Below are positions 736 to 54,138 of a stretch of 64,000 bases of DNA, one piece after another; within the stretch, counting starts at the first letter, position 1; each line of letters starts with the position of its first letter. A model generated the notes under the pieces. That model ran no database searches. It was not told the DNA's origin and saw nothing but the letters and a program-made list of their open reading frames with translations. Origin of the DNA: Candidatus Peribacteria bacterium (GTDB taxonomy: Bacteria; Patescibacteriota; Gracilibacteria; Peribacterales; Peribacteraceae). A program made the position numbers and the translations under genes. The DNA lies in assembly GCA_023245865.1 (NCBI GenBank), contig JAHFJN010000001.1:263649-327648 (forward strand). Direction: 5' to 3'.

Positions 736-3147
736 ATGCGGTTGCATACAATCACACTGACAGGCACCCGTCCGTTCATCGCCCGAAGACTGCGATTGAT
801 TTTCTTGAGCAGATTTTCCTCCCCAGCGTACGTTGCCCTCGTACTCCTTTTAGGTTGGCAGCTTCAGCGAGCGCATGACGTTCGATTGCCATTGCTTTGC
901 ATTCTCATTCTTCTTCTTTTTATACATGTCATCAGCACCTACCTGCAGGAAATTCTTGAAAATGATGCTTTGCCACTGCCCGAGAATGCTCCGATCGTCG
1001 ACTACTTGTCCTCGGAATTAACCCATGCGCTCAGAAAAACTTCCTCTGTGGCTCCGTCAGATGTGCTTGATGCGGCTCTCAGAACAAAGCGAGGCAGATT
1101 TATCCTCGAGGAAATGAATATTACTGCATCTCATATGCGTGAGCGTTGTGAGAAGGAGGTCGATGAGTCGGTCGAATTGTCGTCGTTTCTAGACTTTGCA
1201 AAGAGTAAGCTTGCGACACTCGGAGAAACGCGAATTGATGCGAACGTCGTTCTGTGGTTGTTTTTTTTGTACGTCCAGAGTTGCAAAAAAGTTCAGGAGG
1301 AAGCGGATCTTTCCGATGAAGAGTTGCTCGGCATCATGCATTGGGAGGCTTTTCATCATCGTTTCCGTGTGCGTGAGAATCCTTGGGATGCCACGACGAT
1401 CATGCGTAACAGCTCCATGGGTCGAAGTTGGGTCATGGGTTACACGGATATGCTGGACCAATTGACAGTCGAAGTGCCTTGCGAGGCTCGCGTTGCAGGT
1501 GAGCGAAGCGTCGTCATACACACAGACGCAATCGATGCGGTACTGCGCTCACTCACACGCTCGAAGGGCCACAATACACTGATCCTCGGAAAGGTTGGAG
1601 TCGGAAAACGGTCACTCGTGGAAAATACCGCTTGCGCGCTGCGTACGTTCGAGCAGCAGAGGCATTTGTCTTTCACGCGCGTGCTTACGCTGCAAACGGA
1701 GACCCTGCTGTCGGGTGTGGGAAATCCCGATACCTTTCTTCTTCATGCGCTCAGTCGTGCGCAGCAGTCCGGTCGCTTTGTGCTGGTCATACGTGATCTG
1801 GCGTTGCTACTGCGTTCTGCAAACGGAAATCTGAAGGCAGTGCTGCTCAAATGCTTGCAGGCCCAAAGTATTGCAATTATCGGCATTGCTGACACGCAGG
1901 ATTATCATGCGCTCATTAAAACTGATCCGCTGCTCGATAACTTGTTTGAGAAAATCGTTGTGGAGGATCCCTCCGATGACGAAACGATGCAAGTGCTCAT
2001 GGCTCACTACTTTGCACTGGAATCGCGCAATGTTCGCATCACCTACAAGGCACTTAAATCCATTCTCGATCTTACGAAGCGTTACCTGAGCACACGCAAA
2101 GGTTTGCCCGGTATTGCGATTGACGTGATGGACGATTCGGTACTCCGTGCACGCGAACAAGCGGACGCATTCGTGCGTGAAGATCATGTACGCAGCGTCA
2201 TTTCCTTGAAGAGCAAGGTGAACGTGGAGCGCGTTGGCCAGGGGGAGAAGGAGCGTCTGTTGAATCTCGAAGAAACATTGAAGAAGAAAGTGATCGGGCA
2301 GGAGAACGCCATTCGTGCCGTTGTAAGTTCGCTCAAGCGAGCACGGATGGATCTCCACGACCGCCGAAAGCCCGTTGGAACATTCCTCTTCCTCGGACCC
2401 ACAGGTGTCGGTAAAACACAGACTGCGAAGGCACTTGCGGAGGAATACTTCGGTTCGAGTGACGCCATGATCCGGCTCGACATGAACGAGTACAGCCAGC
2501 CGAATTCCGTTTTCAACATCATCGGCGATGCCGGGTCGAGTGAGGGCTTCCTCGCACAGCGTGTTCAGGATAAGCCCTTCTCACTCGTGCTGCTGGACGA
2601 AATAGAAAAAGCACACCCTGCGGTGCTCAATTTGTTTCTTCAAATTCTCGACGAAGGCTTCCTCAATGACAGCCGTGGTATGAGAACGGACTTCCGCAAC
2701 ACTATTATCATCGCAACGTCCAACGCAGGAGCTCTCTTCATTCGAGAATTTATCAAATCACACGCAGACATCGACAAGAGTCAATTCAAGCAGGCTCTCA
2801 TAGAGACCGTGCTGCGCGAGAAACAATTCGCTCCGGAGTTTATCAACCGCTTCGATGAGGTTGTCCTGTTCCACCCGCTCAGCCCGGAGGTGGCGTCTCA
2901 GGTTGCGTCGCTCATGCTCACCGAGATTGTCTCGGATGTGCAAAAGCGTCGTGGAATCACGGTAAAATTCGGCGATGATGTTATCGCAACTGTTGTCGAG
3001 CGCGGATACAGCGTCGATTTTGGTGCACGTGAAATGCGCCGTACGATCACGGAATTGATCGAAGATTATCTTGCCGACTATCTGCTGAAACACGAGGTCA
3101 AGCGAGGTGAGGAAATCGTCATACACAAGGACGATTTGCGATCGTAG
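736..3147 (+). CDS. Membrane-anchored Clp/Hsp100-type double AAA+ ATPase (ClpB/ClpC-like)
   Basis: 803 aa. The N-terminus has hydrophobic helices (AYVALVLLLGW, LLCILILLLFIHVI). First P-loop is GKVGVGKRS. Second module has GPTGVGKT, Walker B LVLLDEIEKAH and the ClpB D2-small-like EFINRFDEVVLFHPL. Confidence 0.8.
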   Translation: MRLHTITLTGTRPFIARRLRLIFLSRFSSPAYVALVLLLGWQLQRAHDVRLPLLCILILLLFIHVISTYLQEILENDALPLPENAPIVDYLSSELTHALRKTSSVAPSDVLDAALRTKRGRFILEEMNITASHMRERCEKEVDESVELSSFLDFAKSKLATLGETRIDANVVLWLFFLYVQSCKKVQEEADLSDEELLGIMHWEAFHHRFRVRENPWDATTIMRNSSMGRSWVMGYTDMLDQLTVEVPCEARVAGERSVVIHTDAIDAVLRSLTRSKGHNTLILGKVGVGKRSLVENTACALRTFEQQRHLSFTRVLTLQTETLLSGVGNPDTFLLHALSRAQQSGRFVLVIRDLALLLRSANGNLKAVLLKCLQAQSIAIIGIADTQDYHALIKTDPLLDNLFEKIVVEDPSDDETMQVLMAHYFALESRNVRITYKALKSILDLTKRYLSTRKGLPGIAIDVMDDSVLRAREQADAFVREDHVRSVISLKSKVNVERVGQGEKERLLNLEETLKKKVIGQENAIRAVVSSLKRARMDLHDRRKPVGTFLFLGPTGVGKTQTAKALAEEYFGSSDAMIRLDMNEYSQPNSVFNIIGDAGSSEGFLAQRVQDKPFSLVLLDEIEKAHPAVLNLFLQILDEGFLNDSRGMRTDFRNTIIIATSNAGALFIREFIKSHADIDKSQFKQALIETVLREKQFAPEFINRFDEVVLFHPLSPEVASQVASLMLTEIVSDVQKRRGITVKFGDDVIATVVERGYSVDFGAREMRRTITELIEDYLADYLLKHEVKRGEEIVIHKDDLRS

Positions 3148-4723: not shown

Positions 4724-6364
<1,641 letters not shown>

Positions 6365-9850: not shown

Positions 9851-9937
9851 GCCGATGTGGCGGAATTGGTAGACGCGCACGCTTCAGGAGCGTGTATCCG
9901 CAAGGATGTGAGAGTTCGAGTCTCTCCATCGGCACCA
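9851..9937 (+). tRNA. tRNA-Leu (anticodon CAG), class II, CCA encoded
   Basis: GCCGATG acceptor pairs with CATCGGC. Anticodon arm is CACGC-TTCAGGA-GCGTG, with a long variable arm TATCCGCAAGGATGT and T arm GAGAG-TTCGAGT-CTCTC, then ACCA. Confidence 0.9.
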
Positions 9938-9978
9938 GTATGGAGAGACGAGAAGCCTGTGGTGAGCTTGACGAACCA

Positions 9979-9997
9979 AGTCTCTCCATCGGCACCA
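9979..9997 (+). repeat. Exact 19-nt direct copy of the tRNA-Leu 3' end
   Basis: AGTCTCTCCATCGGCACCA occurs at 9919-9937 (tRNA 3' end) and again at 9979-9997. Confidence 0.85.
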
Positions 9998-19775: not shown

Positions 19776-20636
19776 ATGAGGCACGGATTTTTACTCATTG
19801 ATAAGCCAACAGGGCCTACCAGCCATGATGTCGTCTCGCAGATCCGGCGGAGCCTTCATGAGCCCTCGGTAGGGCATCTGGGAACGCTCGATCCCGCCGC
19901 ATCGGGTCTCCTTGTGCTTGCCATAGGGGCAAAGGCACTGAAAGTGATAGAATTTTTTCAGGATCTTTCCAAGGAGTACGAAGCATCCATTCGTTTCGGC
20001 GCGGTAAGTTCAACGTACGATCGTGAGGGCGCCATCGAGGCAGTGAAACCAAAGCCTGGCTGGCAAGTTCCGGACGAACTGAAACTCAGGCGCATCATTG
20101 AGGATCGATTGACCGGAGACATTGCTCAAATTCCCCCGGCCTTTTCTGCGATTCACATTGATGGCAAACGAGCACACGAGCTCGCACGGCGGGGAAACTA
20201 TGTGCATTTGCCTGCACGCCCTGTTCACATTGAAAAGTGCGACATACTCACGTACGAGTTTCCACATCTGTCGCTTCGTATAGCGTGCGGCTCCGGTACG
20301 TACATTCGCTCTCTTGCGCATGATTTGGGACAACTCTCAGGCTTCGGTGCCTACCTCGATAACCTTCGTCGAACGAGAGTGGGGGGGTGGAGGATCGAAG
20401 ATGCACACTCACCCGAGTCCGCAGCATGGGGAGATGTTATTCCATTAAAAGATGTTTTGTCCGCATTCAATGCCATCGAGGTGACCGACGGCGAGGAAAA
20501 AGATATTCGCTGCGGCAAAAACATTCAGCGTGAGGTAAAAGCGGAGACCTTCGCATGGCACGATGGACTGCCAATCGCAGTGCTCGTCCCGAGCAAGGAC
20601 GGGTCCCGCACAGCGCATCCGAGGAAGGTGCTGTGA
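19776..20636 (+). CDS. truB: tRNA pseudouridine-55 synthase TruB
   Basis: 286 aa: GFLLIDKPTGPTSHDVV..GHLGTLDPAASGLLVLAIG..QIPPAFSAIHIDGKRAHELAR. Confidence 0.92.
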   Translation: MRHGFLLIDKPTGPTSHDVVSQIRRSLHEPSVGHLGTLDPAASGLLVLAIGAKALKVIEFFQDLSKEYEASIRFGAVSSTYDREGAIEAVKPKPGWQVPDELKLRRIIEDRLTGDIAQIPPAFSAIHIDGKRAHELARRGNYVHLPARPVHIEKCDILTYEFPHLSLRIACGSGTYIRSLAHDLGQLSGFGAYLDNLRRTRVGGWRIEDAHSPESAAWGDVIPLKDVLSAFNAIEVTDGEEKDIRCGKNIQREVKAETFAWHDGLPIAVLVPSKDGSRTAHPRKVL

Positions 20637-20668: not shown

Positions 20669-21028
20669 TTACTCCAAGTCATAGTCTAGATTAAGATTCG
20701 TTCTATTTGCCAATAGTTCTGCCACGGTTAAACGGAGGTAAAGTGCTATGTACCCAGGCTTCTCTGGTACAAGAGTTTGAGCTTCATGCGACTTTCTCAC
20801 GTTATACGCAGTACCAGAAATTGATTCTGCAGGAGATTCCATACCTAAACGAGCAACATCCTCTGGATTGCGTAGTTGCTTTGCGAGGGCATCAACCATT
20901 GGTTGTTTGCCTTTGTATGTTTGGACAAAAAGTTCACCTTCATCTTGTTCTATGGCAATGCAGGGTGTTCCATCAATAGACGTCGCTATTCCGATTCTGC
21001 CGAGCGCTCTGAAATTCTGATGCTCCAT
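20669..21028 (-). CDS. Hypothetical protein
   Basis: 119-aa ORF. On the minus strand, TTGACG (21057-21062), 17-nt spacer and ATTATC (21034-21039) lie 5 nt upstream of the ATG. Confidence 0.5.
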   Translation of the reverse strand: MEHQNFRALGRIGIATSIDGTPCIAIEQDEGELFVQTYKGKQPMVDALAKQLRNPEDVARLGMESPAESISGTAYNVRKSHEAQTLVPEKPGYIALYLRLTVAELLANRTNLNLDYDLE

Positions 21029-21090
21029 GGAGTGATAATATCACTTAATATAATACCGTCAAGATAGAATAAATGGCTTATGTTAGCCAA

Positions 21091-21166
21091 TGGTGGGCCA
21101 GGCGGGACTTGAACCCGCGACCAATTGCTTAAGAGGCAACTGCTCTACCAACTGAGCTACTGACCC
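21091..21166 (-). tRNA. tRNA-Lys (anticodon CTT), CCA encoded
   Basis: Reverse complement: GGGTCAG TA GCTC AGTTGGTA GAGC A GTTGC CTCTTAA GCAAT TGGTC GCGGG TTCAAGT CCCGC CTGGCCC ACCA. Confidence 0.9.
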
Positions 21167-21244
21167 GTGATTCGAGAGACCGACTGTAAAGGGTGAACAA
21201 CCGAGCTGCAATGATTTATTACGCCATCGCAAGCGATGGCTAGG

Positions 21245-21262
21245 CAACTGAGCTACTGACCC
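21245..21262 (-). repeat. Exact 18-nt copy of the tRNA-Lys 5' end (nt 1-18), 96 nt upstream of the gene
   Basis: CAACTGAGCTACTGACCC occurs at 21149-21166 (in the tRNA) and at 21245-21262. In the tRNA sense it is followed by hairpin GCCATCG-CTTG-CGATGGC (21223-21240). Confidence 0.85.
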
Positions 21263-21288
21263 ATTCCTTCCGTCATAGGATAATCACA

Positions 21289-22023
21289 TTACTTCATCTT
21301 CACAATCATCTTGTCCAGATCCTTCACTCTCACTTCGGCTCGTGCTTTTTGAGTCGCTGTGAATTCGGATAAAAGCTGGTGAAGAAGTGTGCTCGATTTT
21401 TCATCCCCGAGTTTTTCAGCGAGTGCAAACCATGCGTATGCCTCGACAATATCAGGCTTTGCTCCCTCACCCTTCGCATACATGACCCCGAGATTATACG
21501 CAGCTTTGCTGTAGCCCTGCTTGGCAGATTGCCAAAAGAGATTCAAGGCCTTGCCCAGATCCTGTTTCATGCCCTCTCCGCGATACTCCATCACGCCGAG
21601 ATTGTATGCAGACCGTTCGTTATTATTCGTCACACCCTTCGTAAACCACTCGATCGCCTTTTGATAATTCTGTGCGACTCCCTTCACTCCTTGGTAGTAC
21701 GTCATGCCGACGTTAAACTGCGCCATCGCGTCTCCACGATTTGCCGCACGTGTGAGCAGATCCACACCCTTCCTTGCATCCTGCGCCACGCCCGAGCCCT
21801 CCAGGTACATCATACCGAGATCAAATTGTGCAGACAGGTCACCCTTGTCTGCCAGTGCTTGGAGCTCACTGACGGACTGTGGCTTTTTCTCTGGTGGAGA
21901 AGCTTGAACATTTCCGGTGCCCGCTTTCGACGATTGCGGAGTGTTTGGCTGGCAGGCGGAAATCGCAAGCACAGAAATCAACGACAAAAAAATGATGCGT
22001 ACATCCATGCAGCAATCGTACAA
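21289..22023 (-). CDS. Sel1-like repeat (SLR) lipoprotein
   Basis: 244 aa. LAISACQP lipobox. Repeated units: AQFDLGMMYLEGSGVAQD, AQFNVGMTYYQGVKGVAQN, AYNLGVMEYRGEGMKQD, AYNLGVMYAKGEGAKPD. Confidence 0.8.
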   Translation of the reverse strand: MYDCCMDVRIIFLSLISVLAISACQPNTPQSSKAGTGNVQASPPEKKPQSVSELQALADKGDLSAQFDLGMMYLEGSGVAQDARKGVDLLTRAANRGDAMAQFNVGMTYYQGVKGVAQNYQKAIEWFTKGVTNNNERSAYNLGVMEYRGEGMKQDLGKALNLFWQSAKQGYSKAAYNLGVMYAKGEGAKPDIVEAYAWFALAEKLGDEKSSTLLHQLLSEFTATQKARAEVRVKDLDKMIVKMK

Positions 22024-40179: not shown

Positions 40180-40231
40180 AACAAGTGAAGTATGAATCAA
40201 GTAATAAGAATTATGAAGAGCATTTGAATTC

Positions 40232-40265
40232 AAAAAAACCACCACCCCACAGAGCAGGGTGGTGG
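40232..40265 (-). terminator. Rho-independent terminator (minus strand)
   Basis: Minus strand: CCACCACCC-loop-GGGTGGTGG followed by TTTTTTT. It lies downstream of the small ORF 40309-40521. Confidence 0.6.
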
Positions 40266-40308
40266 CCGGACAACTTAGTCCTTTCTGGCAGACTCATGCT
40301 TCGTGGTG

Positions 40309-50745: not shown

Positions 50746-50764
50746 CGGGCGCGTAGCTCAGTTG
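50746..50764 (+). repeat. Exact 19-nt copy of the tRNA-Ile 5' end (nt 1-19), 96 nt upstream of the gene
   Basis: GGGCGCGTAGCTCAGTTGG occurs at 50746-50764 and 50842-50860. It is followed by hairpin GTATC-GCCTTGGA-GATAC (50770-50787) and AGCTCTGACCAAC (50812-50824). The latter is the reverse complement of D-arm 50856-50868. Confidence 0.85.
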
Positions 50765-50841
50765 GGTCGAGTATCGCCTTGGAGATACGAGCATTATAAA
50801 AAAGCGCGAAGCAGCTCTGACCAACGGTGGTATAGTTGTCA

Positions 50842-50918
50842 TGGGCGCGTAGCTCAGTTGGTCAGAGCTCCGGACTTATAAACCGGCGGTCGATGGTTCA
50901 AATCCATCCGCGCCCACC
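50842..50918 (+). tRNA. tRNA-Ile (anticodon TAT), CCA encoded
   Basis: GGGCGCG TA GCTC AGTTGGTCA GAGC T CCGGA CTTATAA ACCGG CGGTC GATGG TTCAAAT CCATC CGCGCCC ACCA. Anticodon positions 34-36 are TAT. Positions 31 and 39 are A and A. Confidence 0.85.
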
Positions 50919-50919
50919 A

Positions 50920-53963: not shown

Positions 53964-53982
53964 GGGCGCCTAGCTCAGTTGG
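53964..53982 (+). repeat. Exact 19-nt copy of the tRNA-Val 5' end (nt 1-19), 98 nt upstream of the gene
   Basis: GGGCGCCTAGCTCAGTTGG occurs at 53964-53982 and 54062-54080. It is followed by hairpin GAGTGTTC-ACTTGA-GAACAC(G)ACTC (53986-54010) and GCTCTAACCAA (54024-54034). The latter is the reverse complement of D-arm 54077-54087. Confidence 0.85.
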
Positions 53983-54061
53983 ATGGAGTGTTCACTTGAG
54001 AACACGACTCTATAAAGATAAACGCTCTAACCAAATTTTGTTGTATACTTTGCAGCAGCAA

Positions 54062-54138
54062 GGGCGCCTAGCTCAGTTGGTTAGAGCATCTCGTTTACAC
54101 CGAGAGGGTCAGGGGTTCGAATCCCTTGGCGCCCACCA
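54062..54138 (+). tRNA. tRNA-Val (anticodon TAC), CCA encoded
   Basis: GGGCGCC TA GCTC AGTTGGTTA GAGC A TCTCG TTTACAC CGAGA GGGTC AGGGG TTCGAAT CCCTT GGCGCCC ACCA. Confidence 0.9.

Follow-up and report, generated by a model that had tools for sequence, protein, structure and literature searches.

Introduction

The attachment (att) sites of tRNA-targeting tyrosine integrases carry a short exact copy of a tRNA end (~16-25 nucleotides, nt) outside the intact tRNA gene, and the copy stops at the tRNA end. In the known cases it is the 3' part of the tRNA that is duplicated, and the repeats bracket kilobases of DNA that include the integrase. A repeat of the same kind, but made from the 5' end, lies upstream of the tRNA-Lys gene in a 64,000-nt stretch from a Candidatus Peribacteria bacterium (GenBank assembly GCA_023245865.1, contig JAHFJN010000001.1, positions 263,649 to 327,648 of the forward strand). 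The whole of this stretch is called the window below, and positions given without a locus name are counted in it. The repeat opens a unit that recurs upstream of many tRNA genes of these tiny groundwater bacteria and that, unlike an att site, has an interior of 77 nt, no recombinase nearby and a structured interior conserved across species.

Partial copies in tandem are also found among pseudo-tRNAs and in the repeats at Escherichia coli tyrT, where the period likewise approximates the length of a tRNA plus a spacer; the repeat units distal to E. coli tyrT carry the last 19 base pairs (bp) of tRNA-Tyr. Pseudo-tRNAs decay evenly (as do the gammaproteobacterial sequences mentioned below), whereas the unit has a sharp block of 18-19 perfectly copied nt, and its remainder is a family-wide conserved module with no cognate-specific likeness to the 3' half of the tRNA. 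The tandem P1/P2 promoters of rRNA and tRNA genes with their UP elements offer a second parallel, the unit having two -10-like boxes at a spacing of ~96 nt and, 40-55 nt ahead of the tRNA, a box rich in A; unlike the known tandem promoters, it also carries a copy of the first 19 nt of the gene, a covarying hairpin and an inverted copy of the gene's 5' region. With attenuators and T-box leaders it shares three alternatively pairing segments (the copy, an inverted copy of the D-arm and the real 5' region), but it has no terminator/antiterminator pair, Rfam match, ligand or tRNA-binding platform, and the regulated product would be the tRNA itself. Archaeal split and permuted tRNA genes (for example PMC3218864) resemble it in having a separate 5' portion of a tRNA able to pair with the 3' portion. 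There the tRNA comes from the halves alone, which meet at a bulge-helix-bulge motif; in the Peribacteria a complete tRNA gene follows the unit, and the copy is without an anticodon stem partner. With each of these systems the unit has one feature in common, and it lacks the defining features of those against which it was tested.

The Unit Upstream of tRNA-Lys

The intact tRNA-Lys(CTT) gene, with its CCA encoded, occupies 21091-21166 on the minus strand (called by ARAGORN; 75.3 bits with the Rfam tRNA model). Its first 18 nt, GGGTCAGTAGCTCAGTTG, occur twice on that strand, at 21166-21149 in the gene and at 21262-21245 upstream of it, so that the two starts lie 96 nt apart; no comparable pair arose in any shuffle of the window sequence. 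The exact copy (the mimic) begins at the equivalent of tRNA nt +1, as a first-pass annotation made from the sequence had reported, and the succession of parts given there also stands: 4 nt after the copy comes the hairpin GCCATCG-CTTG-CGATGGC (hairpin 1, 21223-21240), recognized as an inverted repeat and in folds, and one G further the A-rich box TAATAAA (21215-21221). From the listing of 32 copies and the model alignment discussed below, the linker CCTA (21241-21244), read as CCTAGC together with the following G and C, is what is left of the 3' strand of the D-arm, its counterpart in the real tRNA-Lys being GTAGAGC. The AGC of the linker is able to pair with the GCT of nt 10-12, and hairpin 1 then stands in the place of the anticodon arm.

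Beyond the A-rich box lies the GCTC box GCAGCTCGGTTG (21198-21209), which at this locus is a degenerate, direct-like copy and elsewhere an inverted copy of the real D-arm; its sequence GCAGCUCGGUUGUUCACCC pairs with the mimic through G-U pairs only. The earlier description of TAATAAA followed by a second degenerate AGCTCGGTTG is right as to the sequences present, but in family terms these are a weak form of the (T)ATAAAAA(G) box and a GCTC box. The absence here of the inverted D-arm copy seen at tRNA-Ile and tRNA-Val holds by strict Watson-Crick matching. The interior covariance model R1 matches 21198-21245 with 32 bits (E 9e-5, the model's E-values being rough). A non-conserved spacer of 31 nt (21167-21197) completes the unit and contains the -10-like hexamer TACAGT (21183-21188), 16 nt before tRNA +1; the module ends 32 nt from tRNA-Lys, within the family range of 26-38 nt. 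On the other side, the -10-like TATCCT (21277-21282), 14 nt upstream of the mimic, is a weak candidate for an upstream promoter P1 and falls outside the 7-12 nt interval used for the family statistic. A simple scan found no canonical promoter in the Lys element. The nearest upstream gene, a Sel1-repeat open reading frame (ORF; Pfam Sel1) on the minus strand at 21289-22023, has its stop codon ending 26 nt before the copy, as noted earlier, and the TruB gene (19776-20636) lies 455 nt from tRNA-Lys. The best named relatives of this TruB belong to Candidatus Peribacteraceae/Peregrinibacteria, in the Candidate Phyla Radiation.

The tRNA-Lys gene also contains an internal near-repeat on the minus strand at 21134-21160, formed by GTAGCTCAGTTG (nt 7-18) and GTAGAGCAGTTGCCT (nt 19-33). 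The upstream copy runs on into ...AGTTGCCT, which resembles the second near-repeat GTAGAGCAGTTGCCT, so the junction can be read also as a deletion between two AGTTG sequences.

A Family of Units at tRNA Genes

Two further units are present in the window, both on the plus strand. The one before tRNA-Ile(TAT) (50843-50919) spans 50747-50842 and starts with a 19-nt mimic (50747-50765, offset -96), followed by a hairpin (50771-50788), TATAAAAAA (50795-50803), the inverted D-arm copy AGCTCTGACCAAC (50813-50825) and TATAGT (50831-50836). The one before tRNA-Val(TAC) (54062-54138) spans 53964-54061, with a 19-nt mimic (53964-53982, offset -98), a hairpin (53988-54005), TATAAA (54011-54016), the inverted D-arm copy GCTCTAACCAA (54024-54034) and TATACT (54044-54049). 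In both, the hairpin is followed by TATAAA(AAA) and then by an exact inverted D-arm copy. The three units are ~62-74% identical to one another over nt 20-66. A pattern of copy, TAWWAA and tRNA occurs at these three places only, where none is expected, and a custom motif scan of the 64 kilobases (kb) gave no further copy; tRNA-Pro, tRNA-Phe, tRNA-Ala and tRNA-Leu of the window are without an upstream 5' copy. The window is the only unbiased sample, with units at three of its seven tRNAs, or at three of the five that have a TAGCTCAGTTG D-loop. The TAT anticodon encoded in the tRNA-Ile gene at 50843-50919 (+), which is unusual in bacteria, recurs in the same gene of locus L020.

How widespread is the unit? 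One genome per species was scanned with the pattern TAGCTCAGTTG-N20-35-TAWWAA-N44-62-TAGCTCAGTTGG, which demands that D-loop and that box and to which other tRNA types and other boxes are invisible. It returned 85 loci, most of them from metagenome-assembled genomes (MAGs); orthology of units is taken from synteny, not from a tree. About 33 of the 85 belong to Peribacteria/Peregrinibacteria, and the same layout is seen in Gastranaerophilales/Melainabacteria, Saccharibacteria and a few other Patescibacteria. The remaining loci, from Bacteroidales and gammaproteobacteria, are apparently other things (longer copies or plainly decayed tandem tRNAs). At none of the scan loci is the upstream copy callable as a tRNA.

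The 32 clean Peribacteria copies, the window's three included, all start at tRNA nt +1, are 18-19 nt long and have periods of 89-107 nt; the tRNAs concerned are those for Lys, Ile, Val, Met, Ala, Pro, His, Trp, Arg and Thr. They follow a common plan, in which the copy is succeeded by a remnant of the D-arm 3' strand (CTAGC, CCCAG or GTCGAG), a hairpin of 6-8 bp, CGT, the box (T)ATAAAAA(G), 4-14 nt of sequence, GCTCG(G/A)T or a GCTCTAGCCAAC-type sequence, an unconserved pyrimidine-rich spacer with a -10-like hexamer, and the tRNA. The A-rich box stands 49-55 nt before tRNA +1, and may correspond in kind to the proximal subsite of an UP element, which it resembles. A model of the interior that leaves out the copy was run over 321 kb of Peribacteria DNA and gave 37 matches, of which 32 precede a called tRNA by 26-38 nt, four are the outer unit of a two-unit array (~120-125 nt before the tRNA), and one (L035, 7873-7925) is at a locus that ends before any tRNA. 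There are no matches elsewhere in the 321 kb. The unit is therefore a recurrent, conserved element, far beyond chance, and the three instances in the window are no coincidental duplications, in keeping with what the first-pass annotation had proposed. Further instances are plentiful, and orthologous Lys loci have the unit or a decayed form of it, so that the refuting outcome named in that annotation did not arise. The family is apparently undescribed, full-text searches of the literature having found no description of such elements.

Outside the Peribacteria, several Gastranaerophilales loci (L014, L017, L037, L060 and others) and two from Saccharibacteria (L025, L070) show the Peribacteria-type layout, with a copy of nt 1-18/19, a hairpin, an A/T-rich box and a perfect inverted D-arm copy of 12-16 nt, frequently as two or three identical tandem units. 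In Bacteroidales MAGs (L004, L018, L050, L052, L063, L069, L074, L077, L088), exact copies of nt 1-36/40, through the anticodon, lie ~94-105 nt ahead of tRNA-Gly(GCC) and tRNA-Thr(CGT), and behind each come an A-rich stretch and sequence that nearly repeats the anticodon stem; these may be a different, longer kind of 5' copy.

Constraint on the Hairpin and on the Copy

Hairpin 1 is conserved in structure, not in sequence. In the model alignment of the family 82% of the hairpin cells are paired, against 65% in shuffles, and double-sided changes number 42 against 13, a value reached by none of 500 shuffles; slid controls collapse. The stem of 6-8 bp has many compensatory changes, and its sequence is different in almost every copy. 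The G(CUUG)C tetraloop, initially taken as a hallmark, does not generalize: a CTTG loop occurs in only ~9 of the 32 Peribacteria copies, the others having GAA, GTA, GCA, AAA, GAAA and similar loops, and it is the stem that is conserved. A canonical intrinsic terminator was considered and rejected for hairpin 1. It is followed by GUAAUAAAUCA at Lys and by CGU(G/A/U)AUAAAAA across the family, UUUU being found only in L015 and L033, and the terminator scan of the Lys locus predicted no terminator there, its one terminator-like site lying downstream of the tRNA (21089-21074). The suggestion that the element forms the 3' end of the upstream operon lacks support as a general account, on the same two points and because the unit also follows divergent genes (Ile, Val) or another tRNA (L010, L064). 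At the Lys locus the hairpin may also stop some read-through.

The copy co-varies with the acceptor stem of its own tRNA. Four tRNA-His loci (L030, L048, L076, L086), whose neighbouring genes have 74-78% amino-acid identity, all carry the unit; their acceptors read GCGGGTG, GCGAGCG, GCGGGCG and GCGAGCT, and each copy matches its own tRNA except at one position in L048, where a C-to-T change keeps a U-G pair with the tRNA 3' strand. At L031 the copy reads GCCCCTG and the tRNA GCCCTCG, and the two positions that set the copy apart both still pair with the 3' strand CGGGGGC. The His copies, five in number, all retain G-1. The same tracking is seen where tRNA-Lys adjoins truB, as in the window and in L073, L080, L109 and L100 (TruB 50-62% identical): the acceptor is GGATCGG in L073 and L080 and GGGTCAG in the window, and the copy matches its own tRNA each time. 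Copies are perfect in 29 of 32 cases, while identity between copies is ~33% over the 3' third of the unit, with a median of ~64% for the interior. Gene conversion of a 19-nt patch lacking flanking homology seems unlikely, and with flanks so diverged the identity of the copy is read as selected.

The unit can also be lost. Among the orthologous Lys loci, L073 and L080 carry it and L109 has a decayed form, in which the copy matches at 12 of 19 positions, the A box is gone and GCTCGGT is kept. L100 has an identical tRNA and an orthologous upstream gene end, with at most an unrecognizable remnant of the unit; it was rejected as a clean empty site, its 113-nt spacer being possibly a fully decayed unit. 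L097 and L098 have an identical tRNA and no unit, but the upstream sequence is not alignable, and tRNA-Lys is absent beside truB from the L001-L003 contigs (TruB 83% and 67% identity), although more distant relatives have it there. Copies from the same genome are only marginally more alike than others (0.645 vs 0.595; the exception is L064/L066, both of assembly CAZXIV01, at 0.87), so that spread within a genome was rejected.

Placement and Probable Transcription

TAnnnT, a -10-like hexamer that may not be the phylum's own promoter consensus, precedes the copy by 7-12 nt in 12 of 31 units (p 7e-6, with a background of 0.089) and the real tRNA by as much in 16 of 32 (p 2e-9). For tRNAs of the same genomes that have no element, it stands 8-11 nt before nt +1 in seven of eight. 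In L010 and L064 the tRNA-Ala copy starts 20 nt after tRNA-Arg(GCG), which is normal operon spacing. By its distance to the -10-like box and by the operon spacing, the copy occupies the place of a tRNA start. Judging by this placement it is probably transcribed, and within the Arg-Ala operons it would certainly be so.

Arrays of two or three units exist at five loci, and in these the sequence ahead of the tRNA reappears ahead of the copy; two further loci show traces of an array, and at the other 24 the two upstream segments are unrelated. In the outermost unit of L033 a canonical terminator is followed by the same segment of A-box, GCGCTCG and -10-like hexamer. A comparable geometry appears before tRNA-Ala(CGC) of the window (40180-40300, minus strand), which has no 5' copy: downstream of obg come a canonical terminator hairpin, CCACCACCC...GGGTGGTGG, with T7 and an A/T-rich stretch, followed by GCTCT and CATACT, 42 and 9 nt before +1, respectively. 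From L033 and this element-free tRNA-Ala, the part from the A-box to the -10-like hexamer looks like the promoter region of the tRNA itself, and the truly extra part would be the upstream box, the copy, the D-arm remnant and the hairpin.

Inverted Copies and Predicted Alternative Folds

With what could the copy pair? Within the unit, own acceptors find no better complement to nt 1-7 of the copy than non-cognate ones do (percentile 0.53, p 0.62), and since there is no partner inside the element, the only available one is the tRNA 3' strand. The Lys leader does fold as one long stem through GGGUCAG/UUCACCC (-28.9 kcal/mol, z -2.6), but this pairing is not a family feature, given that result for nt 1-7.

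The region after the A box has a single cognate-specific relation to the tRNA, namely that of a reverse complement of its 5' half (p 2e-4). An inverted D-arm copy of at least 9 nt lies upstream of 20 of 71 tRNAs with a 5' copy and of two of 98 without. The match is to the real D-loop, as in GCTCTGACC (Ile), GCTCTAACC (Val) and CACTCTAGCC (a Pro tRNA with GAGT), and not to the diverged linker of the mimic. The duplex predicted for the inverted copy and the real tRNA (-19.6 kcal/mol) is more stable than that with the mimic (-16.6 kcal/mol, p 0.008) or with foreign tRNAs (p 0.01), the Lys unit of the window being an exception. In minimum-free-energy (MFE) predictions by RNAfold, all three precursors of the window have the copy paired with the 3' acceptor strand of the tRNA and the GCTC region paired with the real 5' part.

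A mirror image of this arrangement follows tRNA-Leu(CAG) (9851-9937) at 9938-9997 (+). After GT come ATGGAGAGAC, an inverted copy of tRNA-Leu nt 70-79 that forms a 10-bp hairpin with the tRNA's own 3' part, then GAGAAGCCTGTGGTGAGCTTGACGAACCA, and then an exact copy of the last 19 nt, including CCA (9979-9997), so that 29 conserved nt separate the inverted copy from the exact one. The same 3' layout is seen after tRNA-Pro(CGG) in L002, where a stretch of 21 nt in the interior is identical.

A Possible Transcribed Leader or Duplicated Promoter

The unit probably affects how the tRNA is made, and the pattern of constraint points to RNA. We tentatively favor reading it as a transcribed leader of tRNA origin, in which the real 5' strand would meet a competitor in the 5' copy. 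Its transcript would be either the front portion of a long pre-tRNA or a short stub RNA, with the mimic starting ~9 nt downstream of a -10-like box or ~20 nt behind the preceding tRNA. The mimic would then pair with the 3' acceptor strand in competition with the real 5' strand, and the inverted D-arm copy, where present, would hold the real nt 10-27. Two exclusive folds would accordingly be open to the precursor, one in which the leader folds by itself beside a normal cloverleaf and a long one that the copy closes, and the balance between them would set the amount of mature tRNA released by RNase P. Transcription, the alternative fold and the effect on maturation are what we infer from the size and anatomy of the family, the placement of the copy, its tracking of the acceptor, the cognate-specific inverted D-arm copy, the covarying hairpin and the long fold predicted for the window's three precursors; the mirror-image unit of tRNA-Leu, with its inverted copy of the 3' strand, conserved interior and copy of the last 19 nt, lends further support.

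Several points weigh against such a leader. The inverted D-arm copy is recognizable in only about one third of the copies and is missing at the window's own Lys locus. The MFE predictions ignore both the tertiary stabilization of tRNA and co-transcriptional folding. A more general complementarity between the mimic and an 'anti' segment was rejected, the alignments being noisy and the excess of G-U over A-C weak (72 vs 45 for the mimic/anti alignment, 14 vs 7 for the hairpin). The argument from wobble compatibility rests on three positions, in L031 and L048. The scan sample is biased by its demand for TAGCTCAGTTG and TAWWAA. The real tRNA has its own -10-like box in half of the units and so need not come from a long precursor, and the decay or absence of the element at related Lys loci (L109; L100, L097, L098) makes it dispensable.

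A wider form of the leader hypothesis is possible but doubtful. These would be cis-encoded 'end-swap' modules at the tRNA genes of Peribacteria and, with the same layout, of Melainabacteria and Saccharibacteria, in which a distal exact copy of ~19 nt from the 5' (or 3') end works together with an inverted copy, closer to the tRNA, by which the real end is sequestered. The precursor would be bistable, with the copy able to replace the real acceptor strand, and the modules would form a new class of RNA switch that controls tRNA maturation or yields a long tRNA-like RNA, kept by three-way co-variation of copy, 5' strand and 3' strand.

Alternatively, the unit may act in DNA, as a tandem promoter or insulator that arose by partial duplication of the tRNA promoter together with the first 19 transcribed nt, the stub RNA having no role. 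Hairpin 1 would be a terminator or insulator, the A-rich box an UP element, and the GCTC box would lie in the -35 region; the benefit would be a second promoter, or a strong tRNA promoter shielded from read-through. We regard this as rather unlikely, although it is the best placed of the rivals. It accounts for the proper spacing of -10-like boxes before both the copy and the tRNA, and for the fixed distance of 26-38 nt from the end of the module to the tRNA despite a spacer of unconserved sequence. The A box, ~40-55 nt ahead of the tRNA, fits the AAAAAARNR type of UP subsite. Also in favor of a duplicated promoter are the arrays of two or three units, the segment that follows the canonical terminator in L033 and the geometry shared by the element-free tRNA-Ala. 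What it leaves unexplained is the tracking of the cognate acceptor by nt 1-7, the G-1 of the His copies and the D-arm-like fold, the GCTC box as a cognate-specific inverted D-arm copy, and the 3' mirror image at tRNA-Leu. Hairpin 1, moreover, mostly lacks a U tract, and the distance from the GCTC box to the -10-like box (15-30 nt, read from listings) is too variable for the GCTC box to be a fixed -35 hexamer.

Scars, Small RNAs and Other Identities

Could the unit be a mutational footprint with little or no function? It might be the remnant of a direct-inverted-direct duplication seeded by the palindromic D-arm, or the scar or miniature derivative of a mobile element that inserted in the D-loop and restored the 5' end, as integrative elements restore the 3' ends of tRNAs. 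This we consider improbable. The presence, absence and decay of the unit among relatives, its expanding arrays and the ~19-nt duplications at both tRNA ends, as at att sites, are all in keeping with a scar. So are L020, where a GIY-YIG gene lies between a fragment of tRNA-Ile (nt 1-62) and the full tRNA-Ile, downstream of the mimic unit; the tRNA copies interrupted by the module in L028 and L034; and the decayed tandem tRNA copies that the same pattern caught in gammaproteobacteria. A scar does not explain why the unit is kept at syntenic loci (TruB 50-62% identical, or a neighbouring protein ~75% identical) with a covarying hairpin and a perfect copy amid randomized flanks. Nor are copies within a genome near-identical (~62-74% for the window's three; 87% for L064/L066). 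Conserved termini are absent, none of the window's tRNAs has an integrase or transposase beside it, and an interior of 77 nt is far too small for an autonomous element.

Least probable, and in our view quite unlikely, is an independent small RNA of ~45 nt, a 5' tRNA-half look-alike with a 3' hairpin, expressed from the upstream box and acting in trans; its targets might, for instance, be RNAs with complementarity to the 5' end of the tRNA, or else proteins binding to tRNA 5' halves. The -10-like box upstream of the copy, the stable 3' hairpin (followed by CGUUUUAU in L015 and L033) and the conserved D-arm-like fold would suit it, but most copies have only one or two U after the hairpin, the operon copies of L010 and L064 have no promoter of their own, and we know of no target.

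Other identities were tried and rejected. The element is not itself a tRNA: ARAGORN calls only the downstream gene, 21167-21262 has no Rfam tRNA match at E<=10, and nt 1-7 are uncomplemented. Nor is it a member of an Rfam 15 family, only the window's seven tRNAs passing the gathering threshold; the sub-threshold matches in 20900-21400 (E 0.08-8) fall mainly on the tRNA gene or its downstream flank and not on the mimic, and one to YrlA (E 7.8) reaches 21233. Beyond nt 25, a decayed cognate tRNA is rejected for the lack of cognate-specific likeness both of linker and hairpin to nt 20-46 (percentile 0.51) and of the post-A-box region to the 3' half (0.57, p 0.24). An integrase att island would have the direct repeat, but the interior is only 77-79 nt and no recombinase is near any tRNA of the window, whose neighbours encode Sel1, VanW, TruB, L9, S16 and similar proteins. 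A miniature inverted-repeat transposable element or insertion sequence does not fit, since model R1 matches only upstream of tRNAs, median interior identity is ~64% and the 3' third is unconserved. The boxA of rrn operons and phage lambda (CGCUCUU...) was rejected as the main reading of the GCTC box, which varies with the cognate D-loop. Finally, none of the defining features of an integron attC site, clustered regularly interspaced short palindromic repeats (CRISPR), a casposon or the target duplication of a retroelement is present.

Related Arrangements at Other tRNA Genes

The composite region of L020 (6676-7200, minus strand), in a Candidatus Peribacteria MAG from Lake Baikal, lies upstream of tRNA-Ile(TAT). 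There a mimic unit is followed by the tRNA-Ile fragment of nt 1-62, an 82-amino-acid GIY-YIG ORF (Pfam PF01541, E 1.5e-12), a promoter-like segment homologous to that of the window's Ile unit, and the full tRNA. This order shows the insertion of a nuclease gene with duplication of the 5' part of the tRNA.

In L028 (~6180-6275, minus strand) and L034 (~2314-2450, plus strand) a second copy of the same tRNA begins 19-22 nt after tRNA-His and tRNA-Thr, respectively. In these second copies nt 20-28 (His) or nt 20-23 (Thr) are replaced by a module of hairpin, A-rich and GC-rich sequence like that of the upstream units. A recurrent trailer, TTCGACTCG - hairpin - CTCGCTCATGG(C/T)AA(G/A)CC, directly follows the 3' end of tRNA-Arg, tRNA-Met, tRNA-Val and tRNA-Lys in several Peribacteria (L031, L040, L049, L065, L068, L072, L080); L065 has it a second time, behind an 18-nt copy of the tRNA's 3' end.

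Significance

Partial tRNA copies beside tRNA genes are usually dismissed as scars of integration or duplication. The 5' copy stands apart from these in being part of a structured module shared across species, in tracking the acceptor of its tRNA, in occurring in distant lineages with small genomes and in having a mirror image at the 3' end. Annotation of tRNAs and prediction of att sites and islands would misread such repeats. If the unit acts as RNA, it would represent an undescribed control of tRNA output in organisms where most tRNAs have just one gene each; as a mere promoter or insulator module it would still give a first concrete picture of tRNA promoter architecture in an uncultivated phylum.

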